From: Candidatus Woesearchaeota archaeon
GTDB taxonomy: Archaea; Nanobdellota; Nanobdellia; Woesearchaeales; SKIA01
Direction: 5' to 3'
DNA length: 64,000 nucleotides
Assembly: GCA_046704725.1 (NCBI GenBank)
Contig: JBJKRI010000006.1
Coordinates: 64,001 to 128,000 of the forward strand
Shown here: positions 49 through 43,750 of the stretch, piece after piece
Position numbering within the stretch: the first letter of the stretch is position 1
Layout: every line of letters begins with the position of its first letter
Notes under the pieces: generated by a model
The model's input: only the letters and a program-made list of their open reading frames with translations
The model's database searches: none
What the model was told of the DNA's origin: nothing
Position numbers and translations under genes: made by a program

Positions 49-669
49 ATGGAACTCGCTGACTGGCTGTCGCCGACCGTGCTCGAAGCCGATTTTCTCG
101 AGCGCGAGCGGGAGCGATATGCTGCGGCTGAGCCGTTCCCCCACGCGAACATCCAACAAGTCCTGCGCGACGATCGACTGCATGAGCTCGAGGACGCCCT
201 CGCGACACAGGAGTTCGTCCACAAGGAGTCCGACCTGTTCAGCTTCGCGCAGACCGACGACCTGGGAGGGATGGAGCAGCCGGTGCTCAAGGAGTTCGTA
301 TCCTTCCTCAACAGCGAGGAGTTCCGCTACTGGATTGCGCAGCTCACAGGCGTGTCCACGACGCCGGGGAGGCTCGATTGCTTCGGGGCGATCTACCAGG
401 ACACGGACTACCTATTGTGCCACGACGACCGACTCGCCGACAGGAAGGTCGCGTTCATCATCTATCTCACGACGCTCGAGGACGAGGAAGGCGGGGCGCT
501 CGCATTGTTCACCGACAACGACGGTCATCCGGGCACGCGCGTGACGGCGTACCCGCCCGTGCGCAACAGCATGTCATTGTTCACGGTGTCGGACAAGAGC
601 TGGCACGAGGTCGAGGAGGTCACAGAAGAGACCTATCGCGTGACCGTCGGGGGGTGGCTTTGTGGATAG
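49..669 (+). CDS. 2OG-Fe(II) oxygenase, OGFOD1/Tpa1 catalytic (N-terminal) domain-like prolyl hydroxylase
   Basis: DYLLCHDD (HxD), RKVAFIIYL, GGALALF, SWHEVEEV (distal His), RVTVGGW (2OG-binding Arg); TTAAA box ~25 bp upstream. Confidence 0.9.
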   Translation: MELADWLSPTVLEADFLERERERYAAAEPFPHANIQQVLRDDRLHELEDALATQEFVHKESDLFSFAQTDDLGGMEQPVLKEFVSFLNSEEFRYWIAQLTGVSTTPGRLDCFGAIYQDTDYLLCHDDRLADRKVAFIIYLTTLEDEEGGALALFTDNDGHPGTRVTAYPPVRNSMSLFTVSDKSWHEVEEVTEETYRVTVGGWLCG

Positions 670-1210
670 CATCAACCCTGCGTATCGCGGACAAGAAAAA
701 GCCGTGGGGGAGCAGCTCTCGCAGGGCTACGTGCTCTTGGACGATGCGCTCTTGCGGGAAGCGCGGGACTCTCTGAATGAAGCGCTCGAGGATGCGCAGT
801 GGACTGCGCAGTACTCGCCCGACCTGCATCGCTACGAGGAGACGGACCCATCTGTCGCCAATGACATCGTCGAGCAATTGCTCGCGTACTTCTCGCGGGC
901 GATCGGCGAGAAAAACGTGCTCGACGTCAAGGTACGCCGATATTCTGTGGGCAGCTACACCTTGCAGCACGACGAGCAAAAACCGGCGGGCCTCCACGTG
1001 ACGCTGTTCTTGTGCGACGGCTGGGAAGCGGGGTATCGCGGGGAGCACACCTTCGTGCCTGAGAAGGGCGATCCCTTGTTGGTGCTGCCCAAGGACGGCT
1101 CTGTGATCGCGGTGAGTGTGCCCGAGGGCACGCGCCGCTTCGTCAAGCGCGTCACGCACCTCGCAGGGGAGGATGAATACGTCTCCGTCGAGTTCGTGTT
1201 GACGGACTGA
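662..1210 (+). CDS. OGFOD1/Ofd1 C-terminal domain-like protein (degenerate 2OG oxygenase fold)
   Basis: INPAY, RRYSVGSYTLQHD, LFLCDGWEAGYRG and TRRFVKRVTH match the OGFOD1 C-terminal domain pattern; distal His absent; GTG start overlaps upstream stop, GGGGTG SD-like motif before it. Confidence 0.75.
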   Translation: MDSINPAYRGQEKAVGEQLSQGYVLLDDALLREARDSLNEALEDAQWTAQYSPDLHRYEETDPSVANDIVEQLLAYFSRAIGEKNVLDVKVRRYSVGSYTLQHDEQKPAGLHVTLFLCDGWEAGYRGEHTFVPEKGDPLLVLPKDGSVIAVSVPEGTRRFVKRVTHLAGEDEYVSVEFVLTD

Positions 1211-1218: not shown

Positions 1219-1226
1219 TTTATAAA
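1219..1226 (+). promoter_or_regulatory. archaeal TATA box for SET gene
   Basis: TTTATAAA ~25-30 bp before ATG 1249. Confidence 0.6.
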
Positions 1227-1248: not shown

Positions 1249-1665
1249 ATGGATGCACTGCGCGCTGCTAAATCACCCATCGCGGGGACCGGCTGCTTCG
1301 CTAACAAGTCCTTCAAGAAAGGACAGGTCGTTGGGGAGTACACCGGAGAGATCATCGACGACGACGAGGCCGACAGCCGCTACGGCGACGAGGAGATGAC
1401 CTACCTATTCGACATCGGTCGCGGACGCTACATCGACGGGGACACGGACGACAATCCCGTCAAGTACATCAACCACTCGTGCGACCCGAACTGCGAGTCG
1501 GAGCAGGACGGCAAGCGCATCTTCATCGTCGCGCTGCGCGATATCAAGAAGGGAGAGGAGCTCACCTACGACTACCACCTCCAGGTCGAGGAGGACGACG
1601 AGGACCCCTACACCTGCCGCTGCGGCGCCAGGGAGTGCCGGGGCACGATGCGCGCGGCGAGCTAG
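1249..1665 (+). CDS. SET-domain lysine methyltransferase with post-SET motif
   Basis: GTGCFA, GEYTGEII, YINHSCDPNC, ELTYDY, CRCGARECRG. Confidence 0.93.
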   Translation: MDALRAAKSPIAGTGCFANKSFKKGQVVGEYTGEIIDDDEADSRYGDEEMTYLFDIGRGRYIDGDTDDNPVKYINHSCDPNCESEQDGKRIFIVALRDIKKGEELTYDYHLQVEEDDEDPYTCRCGARECRGTMRAAS

Positions 1666-12731: not shown

Positions 12732-15700
12732 CTATCCATACACGACCGTGCTATACGTCGGGCTCGACACGCCGAGCAGCGCGTCAGGATACCAATCGCC
12801 CGAGCCGGTCACATTCATGGCGACCTGCGCGGTCTGGCCCGCCGTGAGGTTATCGAAGTGCCAGCGCACCGCAAGACCGGGGTCCGCCCCGGTCACCGTC
12901 GATGATGAGACGGGTGTGAGGTTGTACGATCCCGTAAGGCCGTCATGCACGAGCGAGTACAAGGACACGTTCTGCTGGGTGTAGTTCTGCAGGTTGGTCA
13001 CGTTCAAGAGGACCTGCCACTCGTCCGCTGAGAGGTTGCGCAACTCGTATGACGTCGAGAGGTTGACGAGCGACTGGATCGTGATATTGTTCTGCGCGGT
13101 CATATTCCAGAAGTAGAGCTTGCCGCACGTGATGTTATAGCGGGCGATGCCCTCGATATAGTACGGGCTGTTCGCGCTCCAGAGCTTGAGCGAAGAGTCG
13201 TACGTCATCGAGACGTTCGAGCCGTCATACCGGGTGAGGGTACAGGTCCCGGTGGTGATGGGCGCTCCGGACGGCGCGGTCCAGTTCGCGAAGTGGAAGG
13301 CGTCCTGTCCGACGTAGGTCAGGTAGCCGTAGAGGTCCTGCTCGTCGAAGGCCGACAGGTTGCTGATGCCCCACAAAGCGAACGAGCGCAGCGGCACCGT
13401 CGTGTTGAAGAAGTACGCCGCAGAGACGTTCACCGACGTGTTCCAGATGCCCGGGTCGACGGTCGAGGGAAACACGTACGAGCCGTTCCACATCGTCCCG
13501 GTCAAGGCGAGCGGCACGCTGATATTGCCCGTGTACGGCTCGATGAGGACGTCATCCGCCGAGAGGTTGTACGAAGAGTCGAGCGCGCCCGCGCTCTCCG
13601 GACCGGGCGTGGTGATGTTGACGAGGAACGTCGCGTTGTTCGTCTGGTTGTACTGGGCGTTGGGGTCTGAGGAGTTGAAGTACGTGACATTGAGCGAGCC
13701 ATAGACCGCTATCGTTCTCGTCCTGTTCGGCGCGGCCTTGTCCGCGTAGGCACCCCACTCATAGAGCCCGGCCGCCACCGTGCTGTTAGGGTTCCAATAG
13801 AGTGTGGTGTTTCCGCCCGCGATGGTCGTGTTCTGCCCGATGAGGATTCCCGCAGAACCGGACGGGTCCAGACGGTTCATGAGCGTGAAGTTCACGAGCA
13901 CGCCAGCCACAGCGTGATCCATGTTCACGACGAGCTTGACCGTGTCGTTCATGGTGGCTGACGCGTTGTCACGGTCGACCGCGGTGTCGTTCGCCGGCGA
14001 GAGGTCGTTGATGGCGGTCTTGTTCACAATGAACGTGTCGGACACGTTCTGCGGCACGTAGTACTTGTCGCTGCAGTACACGTTGTCCGTGAAGTTCCCG
14101 TCGTTGGAGAAGTTCGTCCAGTAGACGTACAACCCGGTCCCGGCGTCATAGGTCATGTTCGCGTACGCCCCGAACGAACCCGTGTCGTTGAAGCGGATCT
14201 CACAGGTCGTGTTCGACGTGTTGATGGGAGTGTTGGCGCTGTCCGAGTAGTTCGCGTAGAACGTGAAGTTCTGATAGACGCGCTTGATACCGAAGTCGCT
14301 CTGGTCGCTGAGCGTGAGATTGGACAATCCGATGAGCACGAACGACCGGTTCGTCGTGTCGACGTAGAAGTGATTCGCCGACACGTTTACCAGCGCGACC
14401 CAATCGCCCACTTCCGCCGTCAGGGAGAAGGTGTGCGAACCGTTCCAGATGGTCCCGCCATACAGCATCTGGGCGATGCTCGATGCGGTCGTCGGGGGCA
14501 TGAGCGTCGTGTTCATGGACGCCAGGTACGAAGCGTTGATCTCCGCACCGGTCTCCGGGCCGAGGCTCGCGAGGGTCGCGTTGATATCTGCGGTCTGCGT
14601 CTGGTTGTACTCGGCGTTCGGGTCGAGCGTCGCGCTCTGGAACGAGACGTTCAGGCCGCCCTTCACGTCCACCGTCCGGGTATTGTTCGCGAGGCCCGCT
14701 CCCGAATCGTTCGCCCACCAGGAGTGCGTTCCCGCATAGACCGTGCCGTTCGGGTTCCAATAGAGGACTGCAGCTCCGGAGCTGTTGGTCTGGTTCTTCC
14801 CGATCTCGATGACGCCCACGCCCAATGACGGGCTCGTCAGGTTGGCGTAGAACGTGAAATTCCTTGCAGGGATGCTCGATGATGCCTGTGCGACGAGACG
14901 CACGACATCAGGGTCGGACGAGACGCTATCACGGTCCACGACCGTGCCGTTCGTTGGGCTCGCGGAGTCGATGTAGTACGGGGTGACCGTTACCTGTGTG
15001 GTCGCGTTGGGCGCGTCGCCCGCCTTGTAGTAGATGGCAGGCTGGGATACGAACACGCACGTGACGTTGAAGGTGCCTTGGGTGTTGATCGCGAAACTCC
15101 TCTGCGCCCAGCCCGTGGCGTTGGTCGTGGCATTGCCCTGCAGCGTGCCGTTCCAGTAGAACGCGACCTGCGCTCCTGGCACGGAAGCGTTCGTATGCTC
15201 GTCCTGCAAGCGGCACTGGAGCGTGGCGTTGCTGAAGACCGGTATGGAGCTCGAGACGAGGGTCGCGTTCGTGATGTTCGCGTAGCCGTAGACGGTGAAG
15301 TTCTTGTTCGCGACACCTGTGGCGATCATGTAGTCCGCCGTCGCGTTGGCGGAGACGTTCCAGACCCCTACGCCCGACAGGTCGAGGAGGTTGAAGGTGT
15401 CAAGCCAGTACGGACTGGTGTACGACGCGTTGCTGACGGACTGTCCGTTCACCGACACGTACGTCACGTTCACGCTCCCGAGGTACGAGCCGTTCAGCTG
15501 GTCGCGCGTCTCCGGACCGACCGTCGTGAGGTTCAACGCAGCGGTCGCGGTGCCGTTCTGGTCGTAGGTGGACGCTGGATCCTGCGCGCTGCTGTTGAAG
15601 ACGAGGTGGAGCGCTCCGTAGACGTCGTACGTGCGGGAGCCGTTCGATGATCCCTGGGCGCTCGTGGCGTCCCAGACCCAGTGGCCCGCACGGACCGTGC

Positions 15701-18700
15701 TGCTCGGGTCATAGGTCAGGACGGCATAGCCGCCGCTCGTGGTGTTCGAGCCGAGCGTGAGCGGCCCCTGCGACACTGGTGTCGACGTGTTCGCGCCGAA
15801 TGTCACGGTGACGCCGTCAGGCACCCAGGACGGGACGGAGACATTGAGCAGGATGCTGTCCGGCATGGAGGCCGACGCGGAGTCGCGGTCCACCTGCGTG
15901 CTGTTCGACGGCGAGACCGGTGTGATGGGGAACGGCAGGACCGTCAGGCTCGCGTTCTGGCCAGGAGCGTTGCCCGCGTAGTAGTAGATGCCGAGCTGAT
16001 CGGAGACGTTGCAAGACACGCTGTAGGATCCTGTGGTGTTCGTCTGGAAGCTATACGTCACGCCACCGGAACTGTTCGTCGTGTTCGTGCCGAGCAACGT
16101 GCTGTTCCTGTAGAACAAGACCGTCGCACCAGCGACGGAGACGTTCGTGTCCTGGTCACGCACCTCGCACGATTGGGCGGTCGATTGGAAGGCATAGATC
16201 GTGGAGGAGGCGAGCGACGCGGATGTCACGTTCATATAGCCGTAGATCGTCGTGTTCCGCTGGGACGCGGAGACGTTCAGGAAGTACGACGCCGAAGCAT
16301 TGCCGGAGACGGTCCAATTCCCGACGCCTGCCAAGGCGAGCAGGCTGTAGGATCCCTGCCAGTAGGGGTCCAGGAACGTCGTCGTGTTCGTGTCATTGCC
16401 GTTCACGCTCGAGACATTCATCTGGACGACGCCAGAGTACGACGCGTTGAGCTGCGAACGCGTCTCCGGACCAGGGCTCGTGTAGTTGAAGCGTACGCGC
16501 ATCGTCTGGTTCTGCGTGTAGTTCTTGTTCGGGTCAGCGGTCGCGTTCCAGAAGACGAGCGACGGCGTGCCATAGCTGGTGTAGGTGCGCGTGCCGTTGA
16601 TCCCACCATCGGCACCAGAACCCCACCAGGAATGCACGCCGGCATACGTCGTGGAGTTCGGGTTGTAATAGAGCACCGCGTGGCCTCCGACGGTCGTGTT
16701 CGTACCGATCGTCGTCGGACCGACGGCGAACGGAGACGTCAGGTTCTGGGAGAACGTGATATTCACGCCGTCCGGCACGTAGGACGGCACGGAGATGTTG
16801 AGCAGGATGACGTCGGGGATGCTCGCGCTGCCGGAATCACGGTCCACAGCCGTGGCGTTCGACGGCGAGACCGGCGTGACGGGGAAGGGATACACCGTGA
16901 TGAACGCGCTCTGGCCCGGCGTGTTTCCGGCGAGGTAATAGATGCTCGGTTGATCGGAGACATTGCAGGTCACTTTGTACGTGCCGGAGGAGTTCGTCTG
17001 GAAGGAGAAGGAGGCGGATCCCATGCTGTTCGTCGTGTTCGTGCCGAGCAATGTGGAGTTCCGATAGAACGACACTATCGCTCCCTGGACCGCTGCATTC
17101 GTGTGTTGGTCGTTCACCAGGCAGGTCTGCGTGACGTATTGGTAATCGAACGACGAGAGGGGAGTGGTCGACGAGGCGACCACGTCCATGTAGCCGTAGA
17201 CCGTCGTGTTCCGGCCAGCCATCGAAGCGGGGAAGAAGTACGACGCCGAAGCATTGCCGGAGACCGTCCAATTCCCGACGCCGGCCAAGGTGAGCAGGCC
17301 GTACGAACCAGTCCAATACGGACTGAAGAACGTCGTCGTGTTCGTGTCATTGCCGTTCACGCTCGAGACATTGACCTGCACGGCGCCACCATAGGATGCA
17401 TTGAGTTCGCTCCTGGTCTCGGGACCGAGACTCGTGAGGTTGTACCTCGCGACGAGAGTGCCGTTCTCCGTATAGTTCGCGTTCGGATACGTGGAAGAGT
17501 TCCAGAACGTCAGATTGAGAGCGCCCCACTCATCATACGTCCGCGTGCCGTTCTCCCCGCCGTCAGGACCGGCAGCCCACCACGCGTGGACACCCGAATA
17601 CGTGGTAGCGTTCGGGTTATAATACAGGACGGCGTGACCGCCGATCGTCGTGTTCGAACCGATCGTCGTGGGACCGACAGCGAACGGAGACGTCAGGTTC
17701 TGCGAGAACGTGATAGCGACGCCATTCGGGACGTACGACGGCACAGAGACATTCAGCAAGACGACATCGGGCATGGTCGCGTTCACGCTGTCACGATCGA
17801 CCGCGGTGGCGTTCGCTGGACTGATTGGCGTGACCGGGAAGGGCAGGACGGTCAGGGACGCGCTCTGGCCGGGGGCGTCGCCAGCGTAATAGTAGATGCC
17901 GAGTTGGTCGGAGACGTTGCAGCTCACAGCGTACGTTCCGGAGACGTTCGTCTGGAAGCTATACGTCACGCCGCCAGAGCTGTTCGTCGTGTTCGTGCCC
18001 AGGAGCGTCGAATTGCGGTAGAACGACACTGTGGCTCCCTGGATCGCGACGCCGGTGTGCTCGTCACGCACCGCGCACGCCTGGAACGTGGACTGGTATG
18101 AGTAGATCGTCGACGGGGATAGCGAGGCGGAGGTCACGTTCATGTAGCCGTACACCGTCGTGTTCCGATTGGCGATGGATGCGGGGAAGAAGTACGATGC
18201 CGAAGCATTGCCGGAAACGTTCCACTTACCCACACCCTTCAAGGCGAGCAGGCCGTACGAACCAGTCCAATACGGACTGAAGAACGTCGTCGTGTTCGTA
18301 TCATTGCCGTTCACGCTCGAGACATTGAGCTGCACGGCACCGGAATAGGTCGCATTGAGCTGGGAGCGCGACTCGGGACCGAGGCTCGTCAGGTTAAAGC
18401 GAGCGACGAGCGTGCCGTTCTGCGTGTAGTTCGCGGCCGGATAGAACGAGGCATTCCAGAAAGTCAGATTCAGCCCGCCGTACTCGTCATACGTCCTTGT
18501 GCCGTTCGGGTCCCCGGCTGTCCCGGAATCACCGTACCAGCGATAGGCGCCAGCATAGCTGCTGCTGTTCGGGTTATAGTAAAGCACAGCGTGGCCTCCG
18601 AGCGTGATGTTCGAGCCGAGAGTGTATGGACCTCCGGTGAACGGAGCGGTCCTGTTCGCGTAGAACGTGATCGTCACGCCGTCGCTCACCTGCGAGGGCA

Positions 18701-21700
18701 CAGAAACATTGAGGAGGATGACGTCCGTCATGGTCGCGTTCACGCCGTCGCGGTCGACACCCGTAGCGTTGTTCGGGGCGACGGGGGTGATCGGGAAGGG
18801 GATGATGCTAAGGGTGTCGTTCCCGGATGGCTGGCCGCCCGCGAGGTAATAGATGCTGTACTGGTCGGAGACGTTGCAGCTCACAGCATAGGTGCCAGTG
18901 GTCGATGTCGTGAAACTCGTCGTCGCGTAGCCCGTGCTGTTGGTGAGGTTCGTCGCGAGGAGCGTCCCGTTCCGGTAGAAAGAGACGTTCGCTGCAGCGA
19001 CCGCGACGCCCGTGTGCTCGTCCTGCACCCGGCACGTTTGGGTCACGATCTGCCACGCGTATGCGCTCGACGCGCTCAGCGATGCGGAAGTCACGTTCAT
19101 GTAGCCATACACCGTCGTGTTCCGCTGAGACGCGGAGACATTGAAGAAATACGACGCCGATGCATTGCCGGTAACAGTCCAGTTGCCCACACCAGCCAAG
19201 GCGAGCAGGCTGTACGAACCATTCCAATACGGACCGACAAAGATCGTCGTGTTCGTGTCATTACCGTTCACGCTCGAGACATTCAACTGGACAGCTCCAG
19301 AGTACGTCGCATTCAACTGGGAACGCGTCTCGGGGCCGGGACTCGTGAGATTGAAGAGCACGTAGAGCGTATCGTTCTGCGTGTAGTTCGCATTCGGGTC
19401 AACCGTCACATTCCAGAATTTCAGGGACGGCGTTCCGTAGCTGATGTAGGTTCGCGTGCCGTTCGTGGAAGCCTGCGTAGAGCCACCCCACCACTCGTGG
19501 ACGCCAGCATATGTCGATGAGTTCGGGTTATAATACAGGACGGCGTGCCCGCCGCTCGTCGTGTTCGAACCGATCGTCGTGGGACCGACAGCGAACGGAG
19601 ACGTCAGGTTCTGCGAGAACGTGATAGCGACGCCATTCGGGACGTAGGACGGCACAGAGACATTCAGCAAGACGACATCGGGCATGGTGGCGCTGCCGGA
19701 ATCACGGTCCACTGTCGTCGTGTTCGACGGAGAGACCGGCGTGACCGGGAACGGCAATACTGTGAGCGTCGCGTTCTTCCCGGGAGCGTTTCCCGCATAG
19801 TAATAGATGCCGAATTGGTCTGAGACGTTGCACGACACGCTGTACGTTCCCGAGACGTTCGTCTGGAAGCTATACGTGACCCCACCGGAGCTGTTCGTCG
19901 TGTTCGTGCCGAGCAACGTAGAGTTGCGGTAGAACGAGACCGTCGCGCCAGAAACAGCGACATTCGTGTCCTGATCGCGGACCTCACAGGTCTGGGCGGT
20001 GGGCTGGTACGCATAGATCGTCGACGGAGAGAGAGACGCGGAGGTCACGTTCATATAGCCGTAGATCGTCGTGTTCCGCTGGGACGCGGAGACGTTCAGG
20101 AAGTACGACGCCGAAGCATTGCCGGAGACGGTCCAATTGCCGACGCCCGCGAGGGCGAGCAAGCGATACGAACCATCCCAATACGGGTTCACGAACGACG
20201 TGACGTTCGTGTCCTGACCATTCACGCTAGAGACATTCAACTGCACAACACCACCATACGTCGAATTAAGCTGGGAACGCGACTCCGGACCAGGACTCGT
20301 GAGATTGAAACGCGCATGAAGCGTATCGTTCTGCGTGTAATTCGCATTCGGGTCAACCGTCACATTCCAGAACGTCAAGGACGGCGTACCATAGCTCAGG
20401 TAGGTGCGCGTACCGTTATGGATTCCGGCGCTGGAGTCCGCGTACCAGAGGTACGCTCCAGCATAGCTCGAACTGTTCGGGTTATAGTACAAGAGCGCGT
20501 TGCCGCCGCTCGTCGTATTCGAGCCGAGTGTGTAAGGACCTCCGGTGAAGGGAGTGGTCCGGTTCGCGAGGAACGAGATGGACACGCCATTCGGCACCCA
20601 GGAAGGCACGGACACGTTCAGAAGGATGACATCTGGAATCGACGCGCTTCCGGAGTCACGGTCGACTGCGGTTCCGTTCACGGGGGAGACGATCGTGATC
20701 GGGAAGGGAGTGACGGTCAAGGACGAACTCTGCGCAGGAACGTTTCCAGCATAGTAATAGATTGACGGCTGGTCAGAGACATTGCAGCTCACGGAATACG
20801 TCCCTGTGGTGTTCGTCTGGAAGCTAAACGTGACGCCACCAGAACTGTTCGTCGTATTCGTGCCAAGGAGCGTACCATTCCGATAGAACGAGACCGAGGC
20901 GCCCTGCACCGCAACACCTGTGTGCTCATCGTGCACCGCGCACGACTGGGCGGTGGACTGGTACGAGTATATCGTCGAGGAGGCGAGCGAAGCGGAGGTC
21001 ACGTTCATGTAGCCGTATACTGTTGTGTTGCGGATCGAAGCAGAGACATTCAGGAAGTACGACGCCGAAGCGTTACCGGTGATGTTCCAGTTGCCGACGC
21101 CAGCCAAGGCGAGCAAGCCGTAAGAGCCCTGCCAAATCGGATTGACGAAGCTCGTGGTGTTCGTGTCCTTACCATTCACGCTCGAGACATTCAACTGGAC
21201 AGCGCCAGAGTACGAGGAATTGAGCTGGGAACGCGACTCCGGACCGGGACTCGTGTAGTTGAAGCGAACGAGCATCGTCTGGTTCTGCGTGTAGTTCGCG
21301 TCCGGATCGACAGTCGCATTCCAGAACACAAGAGACGGCGTACCATAACTCACATACGTACGCGTACCATTCGTCGAAGCCTGCGTAGAACCACCCCACC
21401 AAGAGTGGATACCAGCATACGTCGAGCTATTCGGGTTATAATACAAGACAGCAAACCCACCACTCGTCGTGTTCGAACCAATAACCGTCGGACCGACAGC
21501 AAAAGGAGACGTCAAGTTCTGCGTGAACGTGATGGCCACACCATTCGGAACATACGACGGAACAGAGACATTCAACAAGATGACATCAGGGATGCTCGCG
21601 CTGCCGGAATCTCGGTCCACAGCGGTCGCGTTCGACGGGCCCACAGGAGTCACGGGGAACGGCAAGACCGTCAAGGACGTGCTCCGACCAGGAACGTTTC

Positions 21701-24700
21701 CCGCATAGTAATAGATGGACAACTGGTCTGAGACGTTGCACGACACGCTGTACGTCCCGGAGACATTCGTCTGGAAGGAATACGTGACACCACCAGAACT
21801 GTTCGTCGTATTCGTGCCAAGGAGCGTACCATTCCTATAGAACGAGACCGTCGCACCAACCGCAGAGACATTCGTGTCCTGATCACGGACCTCACACGAC
21901 TGCACAGTGGATTGGTACGCATAGATCGTCGACCGAGACAAAGACGCAGAAGTCACGTTCATATAACCATACACCGTCGTGTTCCGACCACTCACCGAAA
22001 CAGGGAAGAAATACGACGCCGAAGCATTACCAGAAACATTCCAGTTGCCGACACCAGCCAAAACGAGCAAGCCATACGAGCCCTGCCAATACGGATTGAC
22101 GAAGCTCGTGGTGTTCGTGTCCTGACCATTCACGCTAGAGACATTCAACTGCACAACACCACCATACGTCGAATTAAGCTGGGAACGCGACTCTGGACCA
22201 AGACTCGTGAGATTGAAACGCGCATGAAGCGTTTCATTCTGGGTGTAATTCGCATTCGGATACGAAGACACATTCCAGAACGAGAGATTGAACGCACCCC
22301 ACTCAGCATACGTGCGGCTACCGTTCGGACCTCCGGCCGTTCCGGAATTACCGTACCAGCGATAAGCGCCAGCGTAGCTGCTGCTGTTCGGATTGTAATA
22401 GAGGACAGCGTTGCCGCCGCTCGTCGTATTCGAGCCGAGCGTATACGGACCACCGGTGAAGGGAGCGGTGCGGTTCGCGAGGAACGAGATGGACACGCCA
22501 TTCGGCACCCAAGACGGTACGGACACGTTCAAGAGGATGACATCGGGCATGGTCGCGTTCACGCCGTCACGATCCACAGAGGTGCCGTTCACAGGGGAGA
22601 CGGGCTGTATGGCGAACGGGTCGACGGTAAGCGTCGCGTTGCGCTGCGGAGCGTTCCCGGCGTACAGCAAGGAAGAAGGCTGGTCGGAGACGTTGCACGT
22701 GATCAGCCAGCTCCCGGTCGCATTCACGTTGAAGGACAATGTCAAGACTCCCGAAGAGTTCGTCGTATTGGTCCCGAGGGAAGTGCCGTTGCGGTAGAAG
22801 CCGACCGTCGCTCCCGAGACAGCAGAGCCTGTCCGCTGGTCACTCACCGTGCACGACGCGGTCGTGGACTGATACGCGTAGATGGTGGATGGAGCCAGGC
22901 TCATCGTGGTCACGTTCATGTAGTCGCCGAGAGTGATGGAGATATCCTGGTTCTGCGTCATGTTCACGCTCCTGGACTCGTCGTGGTACCCGGTCTTGCC
23001 CGCAGAGACCGTGTGGTTGGTGAGAGTCGTGACCGTGCCGTTCTCGTCGGTCGCGTAGGTCACGTTCTGGCGGGTGATGCTGCCGTTCGCGGCGGTCGTG
23101 ACGCTGAAGACCTGGGACGCGAGCGCGTCGGTCGCGTTGACCGTCGCGCCGCTCACCGCGCTCCCCAGCGTGTTGTTCACGTACACGTCCAGGTAGTGCT
23201 GGTAATAGACGATTGCCGTCTCTCCGGTGTTCACTCCGGTGAAGACCGTCGTCGCGGGCGTGATGCTGCTGTTGCGCACAGTGATGTTCTGCACGCTCGT
23301 CCCGGTCCCGCCGGCGTTCACGAACAGCACGTTCCCGCCAGCGGAAACAATGCTGTCGATGATGAAGAGCTGGTCGGCGGTGTTGTAGGTGTTCACGCCG
23401 TAATTGCCGCCGTAGATCGTGCTGTTCTTGATCGTGACGTTGCCGTTCGCCCCTACACCGGTGTTCGACACGTTGATCGTGCTGTCCGTGAGGTTCGCGT
23501 CGCTGCCCAAGAGCACGCCATTGTTTCCGTACACGGTGATGTTGTGCAGGTCCTTGCTCCCTCCCGGCATATTGATGGCCGTCTTTGTCGTGTTGATGTA
23601 CAATCCGTGGGCGGAGAGGACGCCGTTGGACAGTTCGATGCCGCCGCTCGCGACCGTCCCGAGGACGCGCGTATCATTGAGGGTGACCGTGGATGAGTAG
23701 CCGCCGATGAGGCTCGTTGCGTTGATGCCTGTGAGATTGACCGACCGCAACGTGACATGGCCCGTTCCGCTGGCGTAGACTCCCGAAGAGCCCGATCCAG
23801 TCACGTTCGTCCAGACCACACTGTCAGTGAGGTTCAGGTTCGCCGCCTTTATCCCGTACTGGTTGGCCGCCGTGCCCTGGATGCTGATGTTGAGGCGCGC
23901 GAGGCGCAACGGCTGGTTCGTGGTGATGGCGCTCGTGTCGTTGCCGAGGATCGTCGGCAATCCTGTGCCGTTGCTCGTGATCGTGATATCCTTGTTGACC
24001 GTCACGTTCTCCACATAGGTGCGGTTGTCGATGATGACGACGTGCTGTCCCGCGCTGGCAGCGTCCACGGCGGTCTGGACGTTCTTGTAGCACACGCCCG
24101 TCTCGTTGATGCAGACGGTGAGTGGATAGACGATGTAGCTACGGCTGATGTTGGTCGGTGGGTAGAAGTACGTCGCGCCGCTCGCCACGGTCGTGTTCCA
24201 CGTCGTGATAGAGATGGTCCCGATGGGTATCTGGTAGGTGTCGTTGCGCCAGAAGGTGCCGTTATAGACGAGTCCGACCGTCCCGCTGTTGGAGGGCCCC
24301 TTGTGGGTCGCGTTGCTCGAGGCGCTGTAGCTCGCGTTGAGCTGCGACGCTGTCTCAGGGCCGGGGCTCGTGAGGTTTACATCGGCGGCGATGACGTCTT
24401 GCTGGTAGTAGCTCGCGTTCGGATCCACGCTCGCATACGAGAACGCCTGCTGCAGACCGCCATAGACGAGGGCGTCGCTCGTCGTGGACGGGTCGGCGTA
24501 CGTGCTGTTCGCGAAGACCGTGACGTTGCCCGCGTAGACCGTCGCGTTCGGGTTCCAGACGTAGACGGCATTCCCGTTCGCGTCCGTCGTGTTCGAGCCC
24601 AAGAGCAGGTCCGTCTGCCCCAACGCCGGGTCGGTGAGGTTGAGGTAGAAGTCAATCGTCACTCCGGCAGGCGCTGAGGGGATGGAAGCGTTCAACAGGA

Positions 24701-27700
24701 GCGTGTCGGGATCCGCGCTCACGCTGTCTCGGTCCACGCGCGTGCCGTTGGCGGTGTTCATCGCCGCCGTCGTGCGGCTGATGGTATAGGTGCTCGTCTT
24801 GTTCTGCGAAGCATACAACGGGTCGTCGCAGTAGACGTCGAACGCCGCTCCCGCGTAGGTCCTGTTGAAGCTCCTGTTGAACCAATAGAGCTTTCTGGCG
24901 GCGTCGTAGGTCATGTTCTTATAGACGGTCCAGCCGCCGCTGACGTTGAAACGGGCCTCGCAGTAGCTGCTCGCCGTGTGGATGGGCTGCATGCTCGTGT
25001 CGCTATAGTTCGCCGTGAAGTTATCGAGCGTGTAGACCGGCACGATGGTCGAAGCGCTGGTGTCCGAGAGGGTGAGGTTGGACAGACCGTGCACGACAAA
25101 GGTGGTGCTCGACGTGCCGAGGTAGGTGTAGGGTCCGGTCATGTTCGCCAACAGGTTCCACGTCCCGACCGGCGCGGTGTAGCCGATCGTTCCTGTGCCC
25201 GACCAGTTCACGCCGTTGTACAACAGCGTGATGTTGCTCATGGGCGAGGCGGCGCTCTGCGGAGAGTAGTTCGCCTCGACGGTCAATGAATAGTTGTTCC
25301 CGAGCTGCGCCTGCGTCTCCTTGTTTATCTGCGAGGAGGCGTTGTACTGCAAGGTGACGGTGTCCGTCTGGTTGTAGACCGCGTTCGGGTCCGCCACGGC
25401 GCTCGACGGCGCGAGGGCGGGGGCTCCCTTGATGATGAAGGTGTGCGTGCTGTTGAAGAACGATATCACGCTCTCGCCCCACCAAGTATAGTTCCCCGCA
25501 TAGTACGAGCTGTTCGGATTGAACCAGAGCGTGGCGTATCCCGTGGCGTTCGTCGTGTTCGAGCCGAGGAGCAGGCCGTTCTGGCCGGCGAAGGCAGGGT
25601 CGGTGAGGTTCGCCGTGAAGTTCACCGTGTAGCCCGCGCCGGCGCCCGGTATGCGCATGACGAGCGGTATCACGTCAGGGTCGCTCGCGCTGTAGCCGTC
25701 GCGATCGACGACGGTGCCGTCGGCGGGGTTCATCGAGTCGGACGCCCCTTTCACGGTGAAGTTCCGTGTGATGAGGAGAGTATTGGCTGCGCCGGTATAA
25801 TCGGTAAAGCCTGAATTGACGTGCGTCCACGCAGTCACATTCCACACGCCCACAGGTGCATCGCTCGGGAGCACATACGTCCCACTGAAGTTCCCCGAGC
25901 CGTTCATGTCGACGAAGTAACTTGAGGTATTCGGTGCGTGGAGGTCGGCCTCCACGAACACGCCGTAGCTAGAGTTCAGCTGCGACGCGGTCTCGCCGAG
26001 GCTGGAGACAGTGAAGTTCAGGCCGACGGTCTGTGTCGCGTTATAGTCCGGGCCCGGATCGAGCGTCGCGTTCTGATACGCGAGCGTGAGATTGAACAGG
26101 ACATCCAGCGTACGGCTCCCCAGGCTGTCGCTGCCCGCGCTCTGTGGCCACCAGGACCAGTTTCCTCCATGGATGGACGTGCTGGGATTCCACCAGAATG
26201 TCGCCGTGCCGCTCGCGTTCGTCGTGTTCTGTCCCAGGTAGACATCCGTCTGGCCGAGCAACGGGTCGGTCAGGTTCGCCGTGAAATTCACCAGGACGCC
26301 CGGAGCGCCATCGGTCAGGTTCGCCTGCAGTGCGATGAATGCGGGCCAACCCCCCGCCCCCGGCCCATCACGGCTCACGTATGAACCCCCCGAGATTGGA
26401 AGCGGGATGACGCGCACGTCCTCTTTCACGTTTCGCTGCGTGCTGTTGGCGGCGTTGCCGACCAGGTCCTGGCACTCCACGTTCCAGCTGTAGTTGCCGT
26501 TTTGCACGCTCGTGAGCCAGAAGCTCTGTGTCGTGCCTTGGGTGATGCTCGTGTTCGTCTGGTTGAGGGTGTCGTTGATGTAGAGCGAGCACTGCGGCAC
26601 GGGGAGCAGGTTGTCCGAGACGTTATAATCGAGCTGGATGGTCCGTGTCGTGGTCACGACGGTGTTGTTCGCCGGGTTCTCCAAGAGGACGGTCGGCGCC
26701 TGCGTGTCCACGGTGAAGTTCCTGGTGACGGTCGATGCGGCGTTGCCGGCCTTGTCCGTGCACGAGACGCTCCAGTTGTGCTGTCCCTGCGTGAATCCTG
26801 TCACGGTCGTCGCGTTGGTCTGGCCGTTCACGACGCTCGCGCTCGTGTTGAGCGCGCCGTCCACGTAGACGTCGCAGCCGATGTACGGGTCGAGGTTGTC
26901 GCTCGCGGTCCAGTTGAAGGTCACGCTCGTCGACGAGGTGTTGTAGCCCTCGACGGGGGTGTTGGGCGTGACTGTCGGGGCGGTCGTGTCGACATAGAGG
27001 AGCACGGTCTTGTTCGTCGCGTAGTTGTAGGCCTGGTCCCATACTTCGAGCGTGATATTGCGCAGTCCCTGGGGCTGCGCGGCGAGGGTCTGCTGGTGCG
27101 TCGTGGCGTTCGCCATCGTGCCGTTCGAGTCCTGCGTGCCGTTCACGTACAAGGTCCAGTTCAACGTAGAGGCCATGTTGTCCTGGGCGGTGAAGTTGAC
27201 CGACGGGGTCGTCGTGTTATACCAGGTGTAGTTGGTCGCCGGAACGGTGATACTGCTGTTCGGCGCGGTCAGGTCGATGAGGACGTTGCGCGTCGCGCTG
27301 GTTCCCGTGAGGTAGCGCGCCGAGTCGTCGTCGCACGCCGCGTACCAAGTGTCATTGCCCTGTGTGAAGGTGTGCGTATAGGTGTCCGACGTGTTGACGG
27401 TGAAGCTGCTGTTCGTGTCGACGAGCGCCCCGTTCACGTAGACGCGGCACTGGCTGATGTTGAAGAAACCGTCCGTCGCGTTGTAGGTAAGGGCGTGGGA
27501 CGCGGTGTTGTACCAGGTATTGTTGGGTGGCGAGACGAGGCTCACGTTCGGGGCTGGATAGGTGAAGTTCACGCTCAAGAAAGCGATGTCGTAGTCGTAC
27601 GTCGGGCTCTGAGGGTTCTTCCAGAGGTTGCCGTCCGTCAGGCGGAGCCAAACCCGGTTCATGTAGTTGGAGGTGTTGACGGCCTGGGTGATATCACAAG

Positions 27701-30700
27701 AGTCGAGCCCGAGCCCCGCGCGGTAGGGGATGATGCAGAGCGTGACCCACGTCGCGCTCGAGATGTTGTACCAATCGACGTAGACGTTATTCGTGGACGA
27801 CTCCTTGTGGTAGATGTTGAGCGAGAGATTGGAGAGCGCCATGCCGGCGTACATCGTGGACGGAAAGGTCATATTCATCATGTCGAGCCCTGCGGTGCTC
27901 GCGACGATCTGCGCGTAAACGCCGTCCTTCTTCGTGACGTTCCCCAATTCGCTCTGGACGAACGTACCGCCTTGCCAGTACTCCGCCGTGGACGGGAGGA
28001 TGACCACGTGGATGATCTTCGTCGCGGAGTAACTGTTATTCGCGTACTCAGTGAAATTGAAGGTGTACGGCCCGGTGAGGGTATCGAGGCCGCTGGGGAC
28101 GGTCCAGTTGAAATTGAGGTCCCCGCTGCTGTTCGTCGTCGTGTTCGTCGGATAGCCGTTCTGCAGCTCCCCTTCCGGATTGGTCGCGTTGACTGTAACC
28201 GTAGCTCCCTTCGCCCAATGGCTCCCCGTGAACTCGACGAGCTGCGAGCGGTTGAAGTAATCGCCTACGATCTGTGTCTGCACGGTGGGAGAGCGCTTGG
28301 TCACTGTATAGTTGTTCGTTGCGTTGATAGCGGTATTGTTCCGCTGCCAGGCATACAGCGAATACAGCCCCAGCGGCGCGTAGTCGGCGATCGTGTAGTT
28401 CGTCTTGAATCCGCCCGTGCTGTTGGTCGTGACGTTGACCTGTGCGACGAACGACCCGCCCTTTGTGATGTTGATGCTGACGAGGGCGGAAGGATCATAG
28501 ATGTCCGTCCCGGATATCTGGACCGTCTCCCCCTGGACGTACGTGGTCTTGTCGAGCTCCAAAGAATACTTCGTGAAATTGTACGCGATACGATAGACGA
28601 GGTAGTCGGCGTCGGAGACGTGCTGCGTGTTCGGGTTGCCGCCGTTGCTGAAATCGATGCGGATGCGCGCGGTCGGGTTGGGACCGAAGAACTGCGAGCA
28701 GTTCCAGGACTCCGCGCCTGGGAGGACGGCGGTCGCGTTCTGCGAGCCCACCGACGTCGGCTCAGTCGTGCTATTGACGTTCACCCCGCTGACGATCGGG
28801 GTCCACACACCGTATCCAGGATCCACATAGATGCTGTAGCTGTTCCCTGTATTGTCGCCCCAGACCTGGTAGTCCACGGACACGCTGTGGATGACGTCGC
28901 ACTTGCGCAGCGGCATGCTCTCGTTGCCGTAGGTCGCGTTCATGCTGCCGTTGTAGTTCGTCTTGTGGTTGAAGGTCTCCTTGTTCGGGCTCGGCGGCGC
29001 CTCGTTGCAATAGGTCAGCTCCTTGTTGCACGCGGGAGTGCCGTTGTCATAGGTGCCGCTGCACGTCGACGTGCTGTAGTTGCCGCCGTTGGACTGGCAG
29101 TCCGCGTAGAACGGCGGGAGCACGAGGTCGCTGACCTCGACGAGCAACGGGTCGCCCGGCGTGAGCGTCACGCTGTACGGCTCGCCGGGAGTGAGCGCCA
29201 TGACCTCGACGAAGCCGCCGTTGCAGGTCTGCGTGCTGAAGTTATAGTCGGCGCACTTGAGCAATTCACTGCCCTTCGCGATCCTCGTGACGGTGTACGA
29301 CGTGTTGAACGACGGGTCGATCGCGTAGGCGTCGACCACCGCGCGGTCGGTGAATCGCTTCGCGCGGGAGGCCGGCACGGATTCGATCCCGAGCCCCATG
29401 GTCGCGGGGGACGCGCCGTGCACAGTGAGGTTCGATACCGGACCGTTCGGGAAGCTGAACTCGACATCATAAGTCCCGTTGTTCGCGCGCGCCTGAGACG
29501 GGAGCAGGCCGCTCTTGCGCAGATGGCCGTGCTGGCTCAAGGAGACGGTCGCGCGGACCTCCTGGCCGTGGCTGTCATACACGAGCAGTCCCTGCGGAGC
29601 GTGGGGCTGCACCGAGGGAGCGCCGAAGGGATTCGCGTACTCGTCCACGCGCAGGACGCGGAACGCATCAGCGACGACCACGCCGTCCGCCGCCGCGTCC
29701 GTGACCGTGACGGGGATAGAGGCGTTCATCCAGTAGCGCCCGAGATAGTCCCACTGCGCGGGCTGGCGCTGGTCATCGAGCACGGTGTCGTTGCCGATAC
29801 GGATGCGGGCGTTGCTCGCGAACGACGGGTCGCCGGGGTGCCAGACCTCGAGCTCGTAATACGCCGGCGCGGTGGCGAGGAAGAAGCGCATCTGGGACTG
29901 TCCGCGCCCCTGACCGAGGTCGGTGTGGTAGCCCGCGCCGTGGTAGCCGGGGACCTGCGTCCCAGCGTACCACGTCCCGATGGACTGCACGCCGGGATCG
30001 CCGTCGTCCACGACCCTGTACGGGTCGAACGTGGGTCCCGCTCCGGGAGAGAGGCCGGCGAGCAGGTCTGTGTTCGCCGGCAACGGCAGGGAGAACACGA
30101 TTTTCTCGGAACCGTTGGCGAGCGTGCCGACGACCGTTGAGGGTGCGACCTGGGTGTTGCCGGAAGCGTCCGGATACGTGATGCGCCACTCACCCTTGGG
30201 CACGATGGCCTTCACCGTGAAGCTCGCGTGGTCGATGTGCGCTTGCTCGCTCACGTGGATGGCCGCCCCCGGAGGCTGCCAGATGCGGAGGGTGCGCGCG
30301 TTGTCCTGCGGCAAGGAATCGTTGGCCTGAATGGCCACGCGCACCGACTGCGTGGCCGATGGGATGGTGATCGTCGCGTTCGACGCTCCGGGCGGCAAGG
30401 TCTGGCTCTGGCGCGACGTGTCATTGCCGGCCGCGGTCTGGTACGTCACGTCGAGCGCGACCTGGTGCGTGCGCACGTCATGGTTGAAGAAGGAGACGGT
30501 CACCGTCCGGCCGTCCGAGCGCATGGACGACACCTCAAGGTCGTCGGAGACGAACGACTGCTCGGGAGCGCCGACGATCAATGAGTCGTTGATGCGCAGC
30601 GTGGCGCCGCCTTGGGTGAGCACCCACGGGATCGCTGTGCTCTTCGCTCCGGGCGGCAGGAGGATGCGGGCCACGATCGTCACGCTCTTGCCCGGCGCGA

Positions 30701-39373: not shown

Positions 39374-40102
39374 TCATATACGAACCACCTCCACATCAGG
39401 ATATTGACTCTTCAATGCATCCTTCCATTCAGAGTACATCCGAGGATGCGCTTGAACGCGGAAAAGAACCACGATCAGAAAATCGAAGTGCTTGGCGTAT
39501 CGCATTGCCTTATCAGCTATAGTCTGTAAATCCTTGCTAAGGGTTGGTCCCTTCACTTCAATAGCGATATCTTCAATCACAATGTCTGGTCGCGACCTTC
39601 CTCGTTGCACTTCAACTTTACTGTTGGGGAAATGCGTTCTGAGATAACCTTGTAGTTCTCCCTGATATCCTTCTTCGGTTTTCCAACGTCGGCTTGGTTC
39701 GAACTCCTTGATTGCCTTCAACACTCTTCGCGGCAAGGATCGCGCTTCGTCTTCGTCTTGCCATTGGGCAATCTGTGCTTTCGTTCCCCATCTTTCACCC
39801 ACGAACGGAGAGTTATACAGAGAAAGTCCTTTCTCCTTCATTTTCGTGACATATCGCTTTCGTTCCGCAGCTTCCTTCGCCGAGCGTTTCATCAATTCAG
39901 CACTCTCCCTCTCAGATCTCACATATTCAACGTGTTTACCATACACGAAAACCATGCAAATAGACCAAAAAATGGAAACAATTGTCGCAATCAACCACAT
40001 GTTGCGTGCAACCCACAAGAATACCTGTTTCAATATGTACCAGAGAAATGCAAGAATAAGTATCCCTGCAACGAGCAACCAAGAGTAGTTGTCATCAGGC
40101 AT
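39374..40102 (-). CDS. membrane-anchored PD-(D/E)xK nuclease-like protein
   Basis: two N-terminal TM helices, coiled coil, then EEGYQGEL...RPDIVIEDIAIEVKG. Confidence 0.75.
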   Translation of the reverse strand: MPDDNYSWLLVAGILILAFLWYILKQVFLWVARNMWLIATIVSIFWSICMVFVYGKHVEYVRSERESAELMKRSAKEAAERKRYVTKMKEKGLSLYNSPFVGERWGTKAQIAQWQDEDEARSLPRRVLKAIKEFEPSRRWKTEEGYQGELQGYLRTHFPNSKVEVQRGRSRPDIVIEDIAIEVKGPTLSKDLQTIADKAMRYAKHFDFLIVVLFRVQAHPRMYSEWKDALKSQYPDVEVVRI

Positions 40103-40198
40103 CTGTCGTTAGCAAAGCACTGCCTCGCTATTTCAATCTATCGCGTAATCTTCTAAACGGCCCAAATAACATTCTATAATCACTTCACACTGAGCGCA

Positions 40199-40735
40199 TC
40201 AATGCGCAAACATGAGACTATAATCGTCCCAGGGATTGTTCAACGTGCCGTTGGCCTTGTGGAGCCGATAGAGGAACTTGAGATACTTCGAGAGGACGTG
40301 CTTTCGCGGCAGGTCCTCCCGGCCGAACTTCGATTCCCACCATTCGAAGAGCTCCCTGTTTCCCTTTGAGGAGTTGCAGGACTTGCAGCAGAGGACGAGA
40401 TTGTGGCCCTTGTCGGACATGAACTTCCCGATGATGCTCCGCGGGATGATGTGCTCATAGGTGAGGTCTTCAGTAGAGCCGCAATAGATGCATTCATGGT
40501 TATCGTTCTTGATGGCGATCTTCTCGTCCCGAAGATAGTCGCTCATGCTCTTCTTGCCGGAATCAAGTATCTTGTACTGGTGGACGATAAGGCCGAAATG
40601 CTTGTTGAGGACGCTGCGCTTGCTCGAATCCTCGCCTTTGGACCTGAGGATTGCACGGGCGATGACGGCGGCGTACTGGAAGAGGATCCAGTCCTTGACG
40701 GTCTTGATGCCGACGTACGGAGGTTTCTTCGCCAT
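40199..40735 (-). CDS. HNH endonuclease
   Basis: CIYCG, TYEHIIPRS, HNLVLCCKSCNSSKG; start placed at ATG 40735. Confidence 0.9.
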   Translation of the reverse strand: MAKKPPYVGIKTVKDWILFQYAAVIARAILRSKGEDSSKRSVLNKHFGLIVHQYKILDSGKKSMSDYLRDEKIAIKNDNHECIYCGSTEDLTYEHIIPRSIIGKFMSDKGHNLVLCCKSCNSSKGNRELFEWWESKFGREDLPRKHVLSKYLKFLYRLHKANGTLNNPWDDYSLMFAH

Positions 40736-40889
40736 TTCGAACGGCCTGACAGTCGTCTTGGAACATCGTATATAACGATTCTGAAAGAATCGGGGAAGAA
40801 GTATAGAGAGTATATTGCGGAGAAATATAATCTCACCTTGATAACTATGAAACAACAATAGGCTCGAATAGCCCGTGACTAATTAGAAA

Positions 40890-41570
40890 ATGCTGTCACC
40901 AGATTTTACTGAAGACCTGTTAGCATTTGTCACGCTGTCTTCAATGACCAATACTTGTAATTATAGCAAGATGCCCAAATTCATCTCAAGGCAACAAGAG
41001 AGTAAGGTGGGTTGGGACGCTCAGCTAGGCCTGCTATTTTTTCAATTCAAACTAACCAAAGAACTGCTGCGGCGTCCATGCAAACAGTTGCGCACACCAT
41101 ACTTCAAAATAGACATCTACCCCAAGAATCGATTTCATCAACACAACATTCTTTGTAAATGGGCGCACAATTTCCCGTTCACATTCTATTGCACACTAGA
41201 AACGACAGAGTACCAACAACTAGACCGTTGGTATCACTTGAGGAGAATACTTCCACACACTGCGCTATTCAAGCCACTAGACATAGGAGCAATCTCAGGC
41301 ACTGGATCTCACAAAATTGTATACTCGCCAAATACTCCACACTGCGCATATTTCATGTCAGAACCGAAATCTCTTGAAAGGTACTCATTCGAATTCATAA
41401 TTAGGCAACCGCACATACAGAACACAGCGTTAAGCAGCGTGATAGACATTTTGAAAGAAATCGTTCCTAATTCTATACCGACAGACAATAAGCTAAGCTT
41501 TACAAGCGTAAGAGAGATTGTACGCAAGACCTTGGGTTTGGAGATGCTAGCAGTAGAAATCAAGAGATAA
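40890..41570 (+). CDS. restriction-endonuclease-fold (PD-(D/E)xK-like) hypothetical protein
   Basis: SRQQESKVGWDA...LFFQFK pattern, then QHNIL...FYC. Confidence 0.5.
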   Translation: MLSPDFTEDLLAFVTLSSMTNTCNYSKMPKFISRQQESKVGWDAQLGLLFFQFKLTKELLRRPCKQLRTPYFKIDIYPKNRFHQHNILCKWAHNFPFTFYCTLETTEYQQLDRWYHLRRILPHTALFKPLDIGAISGTGSHKIVYSPNTPHCAYFMSEPKSLERYSFEFIIRQPHIQNTALSSVIDILKEIVPNSIPTDNKLSFTSVREIVRKTLGLEMLAVEIKR

Positions 41571-41638
41571 TCGCGCAAATAGTACAATATATACAAACAT
41601 TAAATAAGCAGAATTTCTCCGCCATTCACTTACAGAAA

Positions 41639-43747: not shown

Positions 43748-43750
43748 CGT

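Follow-up and report, generated by a model that had tools for sequence, protein, structure and literature searches.

A two-gene archaeal homologue of the eukaryotic ribosomal oxygenase OGFOD1/Tpa1 in a Candidatus Woesearchaeota genome

Passages of PMC4396695 describe the OGFOD1 subfamily of 2-oxoglutarate (2OG) oxygenases as "found only in eukaryotes" and possibly derived from a gene duplication, and suggest that the C-terminal domain of OGFOD1 may serve the recognition of a substrate or a partner. In the relevant part of a 2015 review (PMC4543633), the modification of proteins by 2OG oxygenases is said to be common in eukaryotes as well as in numerous prokaryotes "but not archaea". Here we describe two overlapping open reading frames, ORF1 and ORF2, in a 64,000-nucleotide stretch of DNA (the window) from a Candidatus Woesearchaeota archaeon, which together almost certainly constitute a genuine two-gene OGFOD1-type oxygenase. 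The pair represents an already known enzyme family in an archaeal form of two predicted subunits, and its conserved presence in hundreds of archaeal lineages contradicts both of the quoted statements as they stand in those passages. Literature searches on an archaeal or split OGFOD1, including the terms Tpa1, Ofd1_CTDD and Asgard, found no description of one, supplementary files being outside their reach, and the main text of a preprint on Asgard oxygen metabolism mentions neither OGFOD1 nor prolyl hydroxylases.

The window covers positions 64001-128000 of contig 6 (C6) of a genome of 1.18 Mb in 8 contigs, with a GC content of 0.60-0.62 and a completeness of 99.7%. The features that concern us lie close to its first letter:

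49..669, + strand: ORF1, ATG start, 206 amino acids (aa); predicted catalytic 2OG/Fe(II) oxygenase subunit, homologue of the OGFOD1/Tpa1 N-terminal domain
662..1210, + strand: ORF2, GTG start, 182 aa; predicted non-catalytic double-stranded beta-helix subunit, homologue of the OGFOD1/Ofd1 C-terminal (Ofd1_CTDD) domain
662..669, + strand: overlap of ORF1 and ORF2, 8 nucleotides (nt), GTGGATAG, within which the start codon of ORF2 and the stop codon of ORF1 both lie (read from the sequence)

The predicted catalytic and inactive subunits

A preliminary description of this locus had read it as a split archaeal homologue of OGFOD1/Tpa1, with the catalytic half first and the inactive half second. 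The motifs on which it relied are all in the translations (YLLCHDD, SWHEVEEV and RVTVGGW in ORF1; INPAY, SYTLQHD, GWEAGYRG and FVKRVTH in ORF2), and searches of known structures support the assignment far beyond chance. ORF1 is terminated by an in-frame TAG, ORF2 lies in a different frame, and a G-rich tract, GGGGGGTGG, read from the sequence, stands immediately 5′ of the overlap; overlap and tract together form the arrangement expected for translational coupling. For ORF2 we prefer a start at GTG 662 to that of the shorter gene call in the database (P0001) because the INxxY motif at residues 4-8 is kept across the family, with Tyr8 in at least 90% of rows. Both genes have a composition native to the genome: their GC content at third codon positions (0.84 for ORF1 and 0.80 for ORF2) is inside the genome range (mean 0.68, standard deviation 0.15, over 733 long ORFs with spurious frames included), and both proteins are acidic, matching the remaining proteome, and probably adapted to salt.

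ORF1 matches the Pfam family PF13661 (2OG-FeII_Oxy_4) with 82.4 bits (3.4e-23, cut-off 27) and PF13640 more weakly (58.3 bits, 1.6e-15). A phmmer search of all Protein Data Bank (PDB) chains returned human OGFOD1 first (E 9e-26, residues 79-259) and then yeast Tpa1 (1.5e-11), and hhalign placed the ORF1 family on columns 20-239 of a profile of the fused eukaryotic proteins with a probability of 100% and an E-value of 2.5e-61. The AlphaFold2 model, built with the family alignment, has a predicted local distance difference test score (pLDDT) of 97.7 and a predicted template modelling score (pTM) of 0.92. It superposes on the N-domain of Tpa1 (4nhk residues 23-247) with a Z score of 28.1 and a root-mean-square deviation (rmsd) of 1.6 Å over all 206 residues, and on that of OGFOD1 (4nhx residues 24-239) with a Z score of 27.0 and 32% identity; across the whole domain, identity to Tpa1 and OGFOD1 is 24-32%. 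The structural runners-up are PolD (Z 21.3), a Pseudomonas prolyl 4-hydroxylase (P4H; 19.9) and PHD2 (18.9), which leaves a gap of about 6 Z units to the next family. The predicted Fe ligands His125, Asp127 and His186 and the 2OG-binding Arg197 stand in columns of a paralogue alignment that show no variation among the 40 archaeal ORF1 rows and the 16 N-domain rows from eukaryotes; this alignment joins N and C modules, taken from 40 archaeal pairs and from 16 eukaryotic proteins. By sequence and model, then, ORF1 has a complete 2OG/Fe(II) oxygenase site within the fold of the OGFOD1/Tpa1 N-domain. It is not a generic single-domain prolyl 4-hydroxylase (PF13640; PHD2, PPHD), because its partner gene is conserved, because PF13640 scores below PF13661, and because PHD2 and the Pseudomonas enzyme reach Z scores of 18.9-19.9 as against 27-28; the grouping of ORF1 with eukaryotic N-domains in the trees described below bears out the earlier description in this respect as well.

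For ORF2, OGFOD1 was the sole match of phmmer among all PDB chains (E 2.7e-9 at residues 458-542, with a weaker stretch at 288-368), and hhalign placed its family on columns 266-477 of the fused eukaryotic profile (probability 100%, E 3.1e-39). Its AlphaFold2 model, likewise built with the family alignment (pLDDT 97.2, pTM 0.92), superposes on the C-domain of OGFOD1 (4nhy residues 267-542) with a Z score of 21.0, an rmsd of 2.3 Å, 180 aligned residues and 26% identity, and on the isolated C-terminal domain (CTD) of S. pombe Ofd1 (6e0t, residues 285-512) with a Z score of 19.1. Foldseek gave the same ranking, with template modelling (TM) scores of 0.86 for OGFOD1, 0.78 for Tpa1 and 0.76 for the Ofd1 CTD. 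Two relatives of ORF2, P0002 (44.2 bits) and P0050 (55.6 bits), clear the cut-off of the Ofd1_CTDD family (PF10637), and this profile matches 66 of the 71 aligned members of the ORF2 family at E<=1e-3 (best 1.1e-22). The distal His was correctly noted earlier as missing from ORF2: in the paralogue alignment the column of ORF1 His186 holds Arg in ORF2, and His occurs there in no ORF2 row and in no eukaryotic C-domain row. ORF2 shows the predicted fold and the sequence signature of an inactive OGFOD1-type C-domain, and archaea and eukaryotes have the same division of labour between a catalytic and an inactive module.

The archaeal profiles match the eukaryotic domains at full length, ORF1 against N-domains with E-values of 1e-37 to 1e-68 and ORF2 against C-domains with values of up to 1e-47, and the two families are collinear on the fused profile. 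Since ORF1 ends by column 239 and ORF2 begins at 266, the gene boundary corresponds to the interdomain linker, which passages of PMC4396695 place at residues 239-269 of human OGFOD1. On sequence and predicted structure the pair agrees with the OGFOD1 subfamily in every respect except the single-chain architecture and, for the ORF2 of the window, the Pfam cut-off.

A scan of a species-level genome collection with a profile made from the ORF1 alignment yielded 71 loci. A separate ORF2 homologue on the same strand follows ORF1 in 67 of these, and none has the two fused. The start of ORF2 overlaps the end of ORF1 in 58 of the 67, most commonly by 13, 11, 8 or 4 nt, these counts depending on our choice of start codons and including one locus (L057, nominally -245 nt) in which the overlap is an artefact of a run-on ORF1 frame. 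Where there is no overlap, ORF2 begins 1-43 nt downstream (6 loci) or 393-991 nt downstream with a small inserted gene (3 loci). Four loci have no downstream ORF2: L008 and L042 end at a contig edge just after ORF1, and L019 and L026, looked at over the locus only, have a convergent gene of 784-785 aa in its place. In L038 and L070 ORF2 is in the frame of ORF1 and starts 3 nt past its stop, such that one stop codon parts the halves; in L056 it is also in frame and starts 393 nt downstream. A search with ORF2 only of 40 related genomes found homologues in 4 (26-30% identity), all with an ORF1 homologue directly upstream and an overlap of 4 to 13 nt.

In an exhaustive search of 1.84 billion cluster representatives, a profile of the ORF2 alignment matched 983 proteins at E<=1e-3, of which 641 also reach E<=1e-10. 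The best 150 of the 983 comprise 146 stand-alone proteins of 148-210 aa and four fused N+C proteins, one of them from Pythium by its record name, two eukaryotic-looking by sequence and one, P0090 (426 aa), with no assigned source. Searching with the fused proteins gave 536 matches at E<=1e-10, the best 120 of which all carry both Pfam domains, and among the matches listed every fused protein that bears an organism name is eukaryotic. Dozens of archaeal species retain both genes at one locus, unfused.

By record title the 71 loci come mostly from metagenome-assembled genomes (MAGs) of Woesearchaeota, Pacearchaeota and Nanoarchaeota, with two from Heimdallarchaeota, one from Kariarchaeota and one from Parvarchaeum; the label "Methanosarcinales" is attached to about a dozen, and two bear bacterial labels. 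We rejected L039 (G306, "Acidobacteriota") as a bacterial carrier, its contig coordinates and E-values being identical to those of G184, which belongs to the window's own order, and we rejected the "Methanosarcinales" label of L050: an identical pair occurs in L005 (G031, also of the window's order). Several carrier MAGs with such labels (Acidobacteriota, "bacterium", "uncultured Methanosarcinales") measure about 0.8-1.2 Mb, and at least two belong to the window's DPANN order; at least some of the odd public labels look wrong. In evenly sampled genomes, with the ORF2 family counted at E<=1e-5, the family was found in 34 of 301 genomes from the window's order, where it reaches 33 of the 223 high-quality genomes and 26 of the 217 genera. 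At the level of the phylum it was found in 64 of 301 genomes and 53 of 225 genera, and 10 of these genomes belong to other orders of the class. In the phylum around the Heimdallarchaeota genome (Asgard) it was found in 5 of 301 genomes, once about 660 kb into a long contig. The Pfam cut-off of Ofd1_CTDD was passed in none of 14 well-known control genomes. The split is conserved, and the pair is common in DPANN and rare in Asgard archaea. The DPANN organism supposed in the preliminary description is borne out by the genome size of 1.18 Mb and by the nearest pairs, which come from Woesearchaeota MAGs.

Proposed mechanism and rival explanations

The reading that we favour, with moderate confidence, is that ORF1 and ORF2 encode the two subunits of a protein prolyl hydroxylase of the OGFOD1/Tpa1 type, translated in a coupled fashion from the overlapping genes and acting as a heterodimer on Pro63 of the organism's own uS12. 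The two proteins would pack together through their minor beta-sheets as the two domains of OGFOD1 do, ORF2 would serve as a scaffold or for the recognition of the substrate, and the complex would use O2, Fe(II) and 2OG to hydroxylate Pro63 in the loop VEAKQPNSAMRK of uS12 at the decoding centre. Hydroxylation might then tune the accuracy of decoding or termination to the supply of oxygen, iron or 2OG, as has been reported for eukaryotes. The uS12 gene lies on the same contig (C6:7515-7838), and the encoded protein aligns end to end with archaeal uS12 and with eukaryotic RPS23 (E 1e-41 to 1e-48). It carries VEAKQPNSAMRKCVRVQL, with Pro63 counted from the translation, so that the conserved target loop anticipated in the preliminary description is indeed present in this genome. 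That uS12 is the substrate seems to us somewhat more probable than the alternatives taken together. The same description had also considered a host ribosome as the target, and the analysis gave no sign of this.

Several observations weigh against this reading. The single Pfam match of the window's ORF2, to Ofd1_CTDD, scores 20.8 bits and falls below the curated cut-off of 27, and a six-frame search of the genome with PF10637 missed ORF2 at E<=0.01; the match that the preliminary description called for is weak for the ORF2 sequence taken alone and secure for its family. PHD2 chains follow closely behind OGFOD1 in the structural comparison of ORF2 (Z up to 19.1, 12-14% identity, a small margin against 21.0), and the fold by itself discriminates ORF2 weakly, the proposed assignment resting on fold and sequence together. 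As to the substrate, the uS12 loop is conserved in archaea with or without the pair and so permits uS12 as the target and does not identify it, the uS12 gene is about 56 kb distant from the pair, and the recurrent neighbours of the pair in other genomes are genes of DNA metabolism, not of translation. The pair is patchy, as the counts for order and phylum given above show, and therefore dispensable. Many DPANN archaea are thought to be anaerobic, and no haem-copper oxidase was found in the genome. An Fe/Mn superoxide dismutase is encoded, and the two observations together fit an organism that is exposed to oxygen and does not respire it. Because the enzyme needs O2, the pair would also indicate that organisms commonly regarded as anaerobic symbionts meet oxygen.

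An enzyme of the same family could act on another substrate, such as a translation factor (as bacterial PPHD does on EF-Tu), a ribosomal protein other than uS12 or a small molecule. Among 2OG oxygenases that share a fold, changes of substrate are frequent, the next structural neighbours at Z scores of 19-21 are generic prolyl hydroxylases and small-molecule oxygenases (PolD, PasI, BesD/Hal), the pair is unlinked to ribosomal genes in all loci examined, and a long branch parts the eukaryotic and archaeal groups. We nevertheless regard a different substrate as unlikely, since ORF1 stands about 6 Z units above those families and keeps its identity to Tpa1 and OGFOD1 over the whole domain, since uS12 hydroxylases are the only enzymes so far known to possess the specialised inactive partner domain, and since the target loop is nearly identical in this archaeon.

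Far less probable is a role on nucleic acids, as an AlkB-like oxidative dealkylase or in some other response to DNA damage, of the kind once proposed for yeast Tpa1. Such a role would suit the company of the pair in related loci, where genes of DNA metabolism (RadA, UDG, PCNA and an OB-fold protein) recur around it, and a DNA-repair function of Tpa1 is cited in a passage of PMC8153317. The relevant part of PMC6746446, however, presents evidence against Tpa1-mediated repair in vivo, no AlkB-family structure is among the best 50 matches of either model, the neighbours in the window are genes for a protein-L-isoaspartate O-methyltransferase (PCMT) and a SET-domain protein and not repair genes, and synteny among the housekeeping genes of tiny genomes is weak evidence. 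That the two ORFs are a single gene disrupted through a frameshift in sequencing or assembly, or else a pseudogene in decay, is a reading we give practically no credence. A single-base indel would produce just such an overlap in different frames, but the two-gene layout recurs in 67 of 71 independent loci with no fusion and with varying overlap lengths and frames, ORF2 stands alone at 148-210 aa in nearly all of its best database representatives (146 of 150), and both proteins are predicted to fold confidently as complete domains with the catalytic residues intact. The comparative data refute this explanation.

Phylogeny and possible origins of the two-gene form

The trees were built from 68 archaeal pairs, comprising the window, the 4 loci of the ORF2-only genome search and 63 of the 67 two-gene loci (4 of the rows duplicate others); L048, L059 and L071, which are cut at contig ends, and L057, with its ambiguous frames, were left out. 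In a concatenated tree of 87 rows and 399 columns (LG+C20+F+G4, quick search), 19 rows of which are eukaryotic proteins divided into an N and a C part, all eukaryotes fall on one side of a single branch (Shimodaira-Hasegawa-like approximate likelihood ratio test, SH-aLRT, 99). The Asgard pairs and L052 lie among the DPANN pairs, and the window groups with two Woesearchaeota MAGs with a support of 100. A careful search on 56 rows, from which 28 archaeal rows were omitted for speed, along with three eukaryotic near-duplicate or long-branch rows, recovered the eukaryote branch at 100/98 (bootstrap/SH-aLRT) and an Asgard cluster at 98/91. Forcing the eukaryotes together with the Asgard cluster costs 4.17 log-likelihood units and is not rejected by the approximately unbiased (AU) test (p-AU 0.40), for which the group was defined after the tree had been seen, the hypothesis itself being a priori.

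A paralogue tree that combines both kinds of module (112 rows, 206 columns, quick search) separates N-type from C-type modules with a support of 99 and places ORF1 with the eukaryotic N-domains and ORF2 with the C-domains. When rooted by the paralogue, both subtrees split first into eukaryotes and archaea, with supports of 94 and 70 for N and of 87 and 86 for C, one flagged long branch (C_L074) being the exception; the supports in these trees are moderate and many rows have a deviant composition. On this topology the duplication into a catalytic and an inactive module came before the archaeal and eukaryotic forms parted, and neither group is nested inside the other. The trees speak against a recent transfer from crown eukaryotes, and a donor within the sampled crown eukaryotes would be excluded because the paralogue root falls between eukaryotes and archaea in both subtrees. 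Vertical descent with a fusion on the eukaryotic stem and a single ancient transfer in either direction are both compatible with the trees.

One scenario, which we put forward as a tentative possibility, is that of an ancestral pre-fusion operon: a tandem duplication in an archaeon gave rise to a catalytic and a scaffold subunit, eukaryotes received the two genes from their archaeal ancestor and fused them, and the unfused heterodimer hydroxylates uS12 at the decoding centre to this day in DPANN and in some Asgard archaea. If this were true, the oxygen-dependent tuning of translational accuracy would predate eukaryotes and exist in archaea. The converse, that a eukaryotic OGFOD1 gene was transferred to archaea and there underwent fission, we consider rather improbable. 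It can draw on the description of the family as exclusively eukaryotic in print (passages of PMC4396695), on the patchy presence of the pair in archaea, on the grouping of the Asgard pairs among DPANN pairs and not beside eukaryotes, and on a root between the two groups that leaves parsimony silent on which architecture came first. Against it stand the position of the eukaryotes on one side of a single branch with no archaeal sequence inside eukaryotic diversity, the paralogue root between eukaryotes and archaea in the N as well as the C subtree, and the native composition and stable housekeeping synteny of the archaeal genes. Gene fusion is, moreover, commoner than fission. With the pair in hand, the origin of ribosome hydroxylation becomes testable.

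Genomic setting and comparison with known enzymes

In other genomes RadA (Rad51 family) lies upstream of the pair on the same strand in 18 loci, including L012 and L020, and within 150 nt of ORF1 in 10. Other recurrent neighbours are NDK (14 loci), YdjM (11), an OB-fold protein (11), UDG (7) and PCNA (two clusters of 7); YdjM and the OB-fold protein lie farther upstream of the RadA-linked pairs, with PCNA, NDK and UDG near. This neighbourhood looks like stable chromosomal synteny and not like a mobile element. In the present genome the pair is flanked by the following features:

-651..about -20 of the window (L006:462-1421), - strand: PCMT gene (PF01135, 1.4e-57), divergent from ORF1
1219..1226, + strand: TATA-like box TTTATAAA, belonging to the SET gene, 23 nt before its ATG (read from the sequence)
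1249..1665, + strand: SET-domain gene, 138 aa (PF00856, 2e-27), 38 nt 3′ of ORF2

Three protein-modifying genes thus adjoin here (PCMT, the oxygenase pair and SET), in an arrangement that is not conserved elsewhere. SET-domain lysine methyltransferases are uncommon in archaea. We considered the three as a protein-modification operon and rejected this, as neither neighbour is conserved beside the pair in other genomes and the SET gene has its own TTTATAAA box.

Farther into the window, a giant ORF of 6531 aa (12732..32327, - strand) has only weak Ig-like and bMG3 matches (Big_7, Big_1, bMG3) and probably encodes a giant surface protein of the DPANN kind. An island of low GC content at about 40000..44000 (0.45-0.46 as against about 0.60) is probably a foreign insertion; it and its edge hold the following genes:

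40199..40858, - strand: HNH endonuclease gene, in the low-GC island
40890..41570, + strand: gene with no assigned function, in the low-GC island
41639..43747, + strand: subtilase S8 gene, in the low-GC island
43751..45034, - strand: gene of the cyclopropane-fatty-acyl-phospholipid / mycolic acid cyclopropane synthase family (PF02353, 4.6e-90), at the edge of the island

A cyclopropane synthase family member is odd for an archaeon with ether lipids.

Among described enzymes, the bacterial arginine hydroxylase of uL16, YcfD/RoxA, is of the JmjC type, acts on another residue of another ribosomal protein and is related to ORF1 at the superfamily level only; it is, according to passages of PMC4396695, a precedent for the modification of a ribosomal protein by a 2OG oxygenase outside eukaryotes. 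Human PHD2/EGLN1 and PPHD of Pseudomonas putida, which hydroxylates EF-Tu (PDB 4IW3), have the fold and cofactor site of ORF1 in common and reach Z scores of 18-20 with both models, but they lack an inactive partner domain and are only 12-18% identical. S. cerevisiae Tpa1 (PDB 3KT1, 4NHK) provides with its N-domain the best structural match of ORF1. Tpa1 and S. pombe Ofd1 (CTD, PDB 6E0T) are fused, whereas the archaeal pair is split. Tpa1 dimerises through inserts in its C-domain, and this domain binds Ett1 (Nro1 in the case of Ofd1), as passages of PMC4396695 relate; the inserts of the Tpa1 C-domain are absent from the compact archaeal ORF2.

The closest relative by sequence is human OGFOD1 (PDB 4NHX/4NHY), the trans-3-prolyl hydroxylase of uS12/RPS23 Pro62, which is the best sequence match of both ORFs. 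As in OGFOD1, a predicted catalytic half with HxD...H and Arg is followed in the archaeal pair by a second, apparently inactive double-stranded beta-helix half, and the target loop of uS12 is conserved. The inactive C-domain is here a separate protein that can be omitted, titrated or swapped, and the archaeal pair thereby offers a natural experiment on its function. OGFOD1 is one polypeptide of 542 aa with a linker between its domains, whereas the archaeal pair has a gene boundary instead and its halves, of 206 and 182 aa, are more compact.

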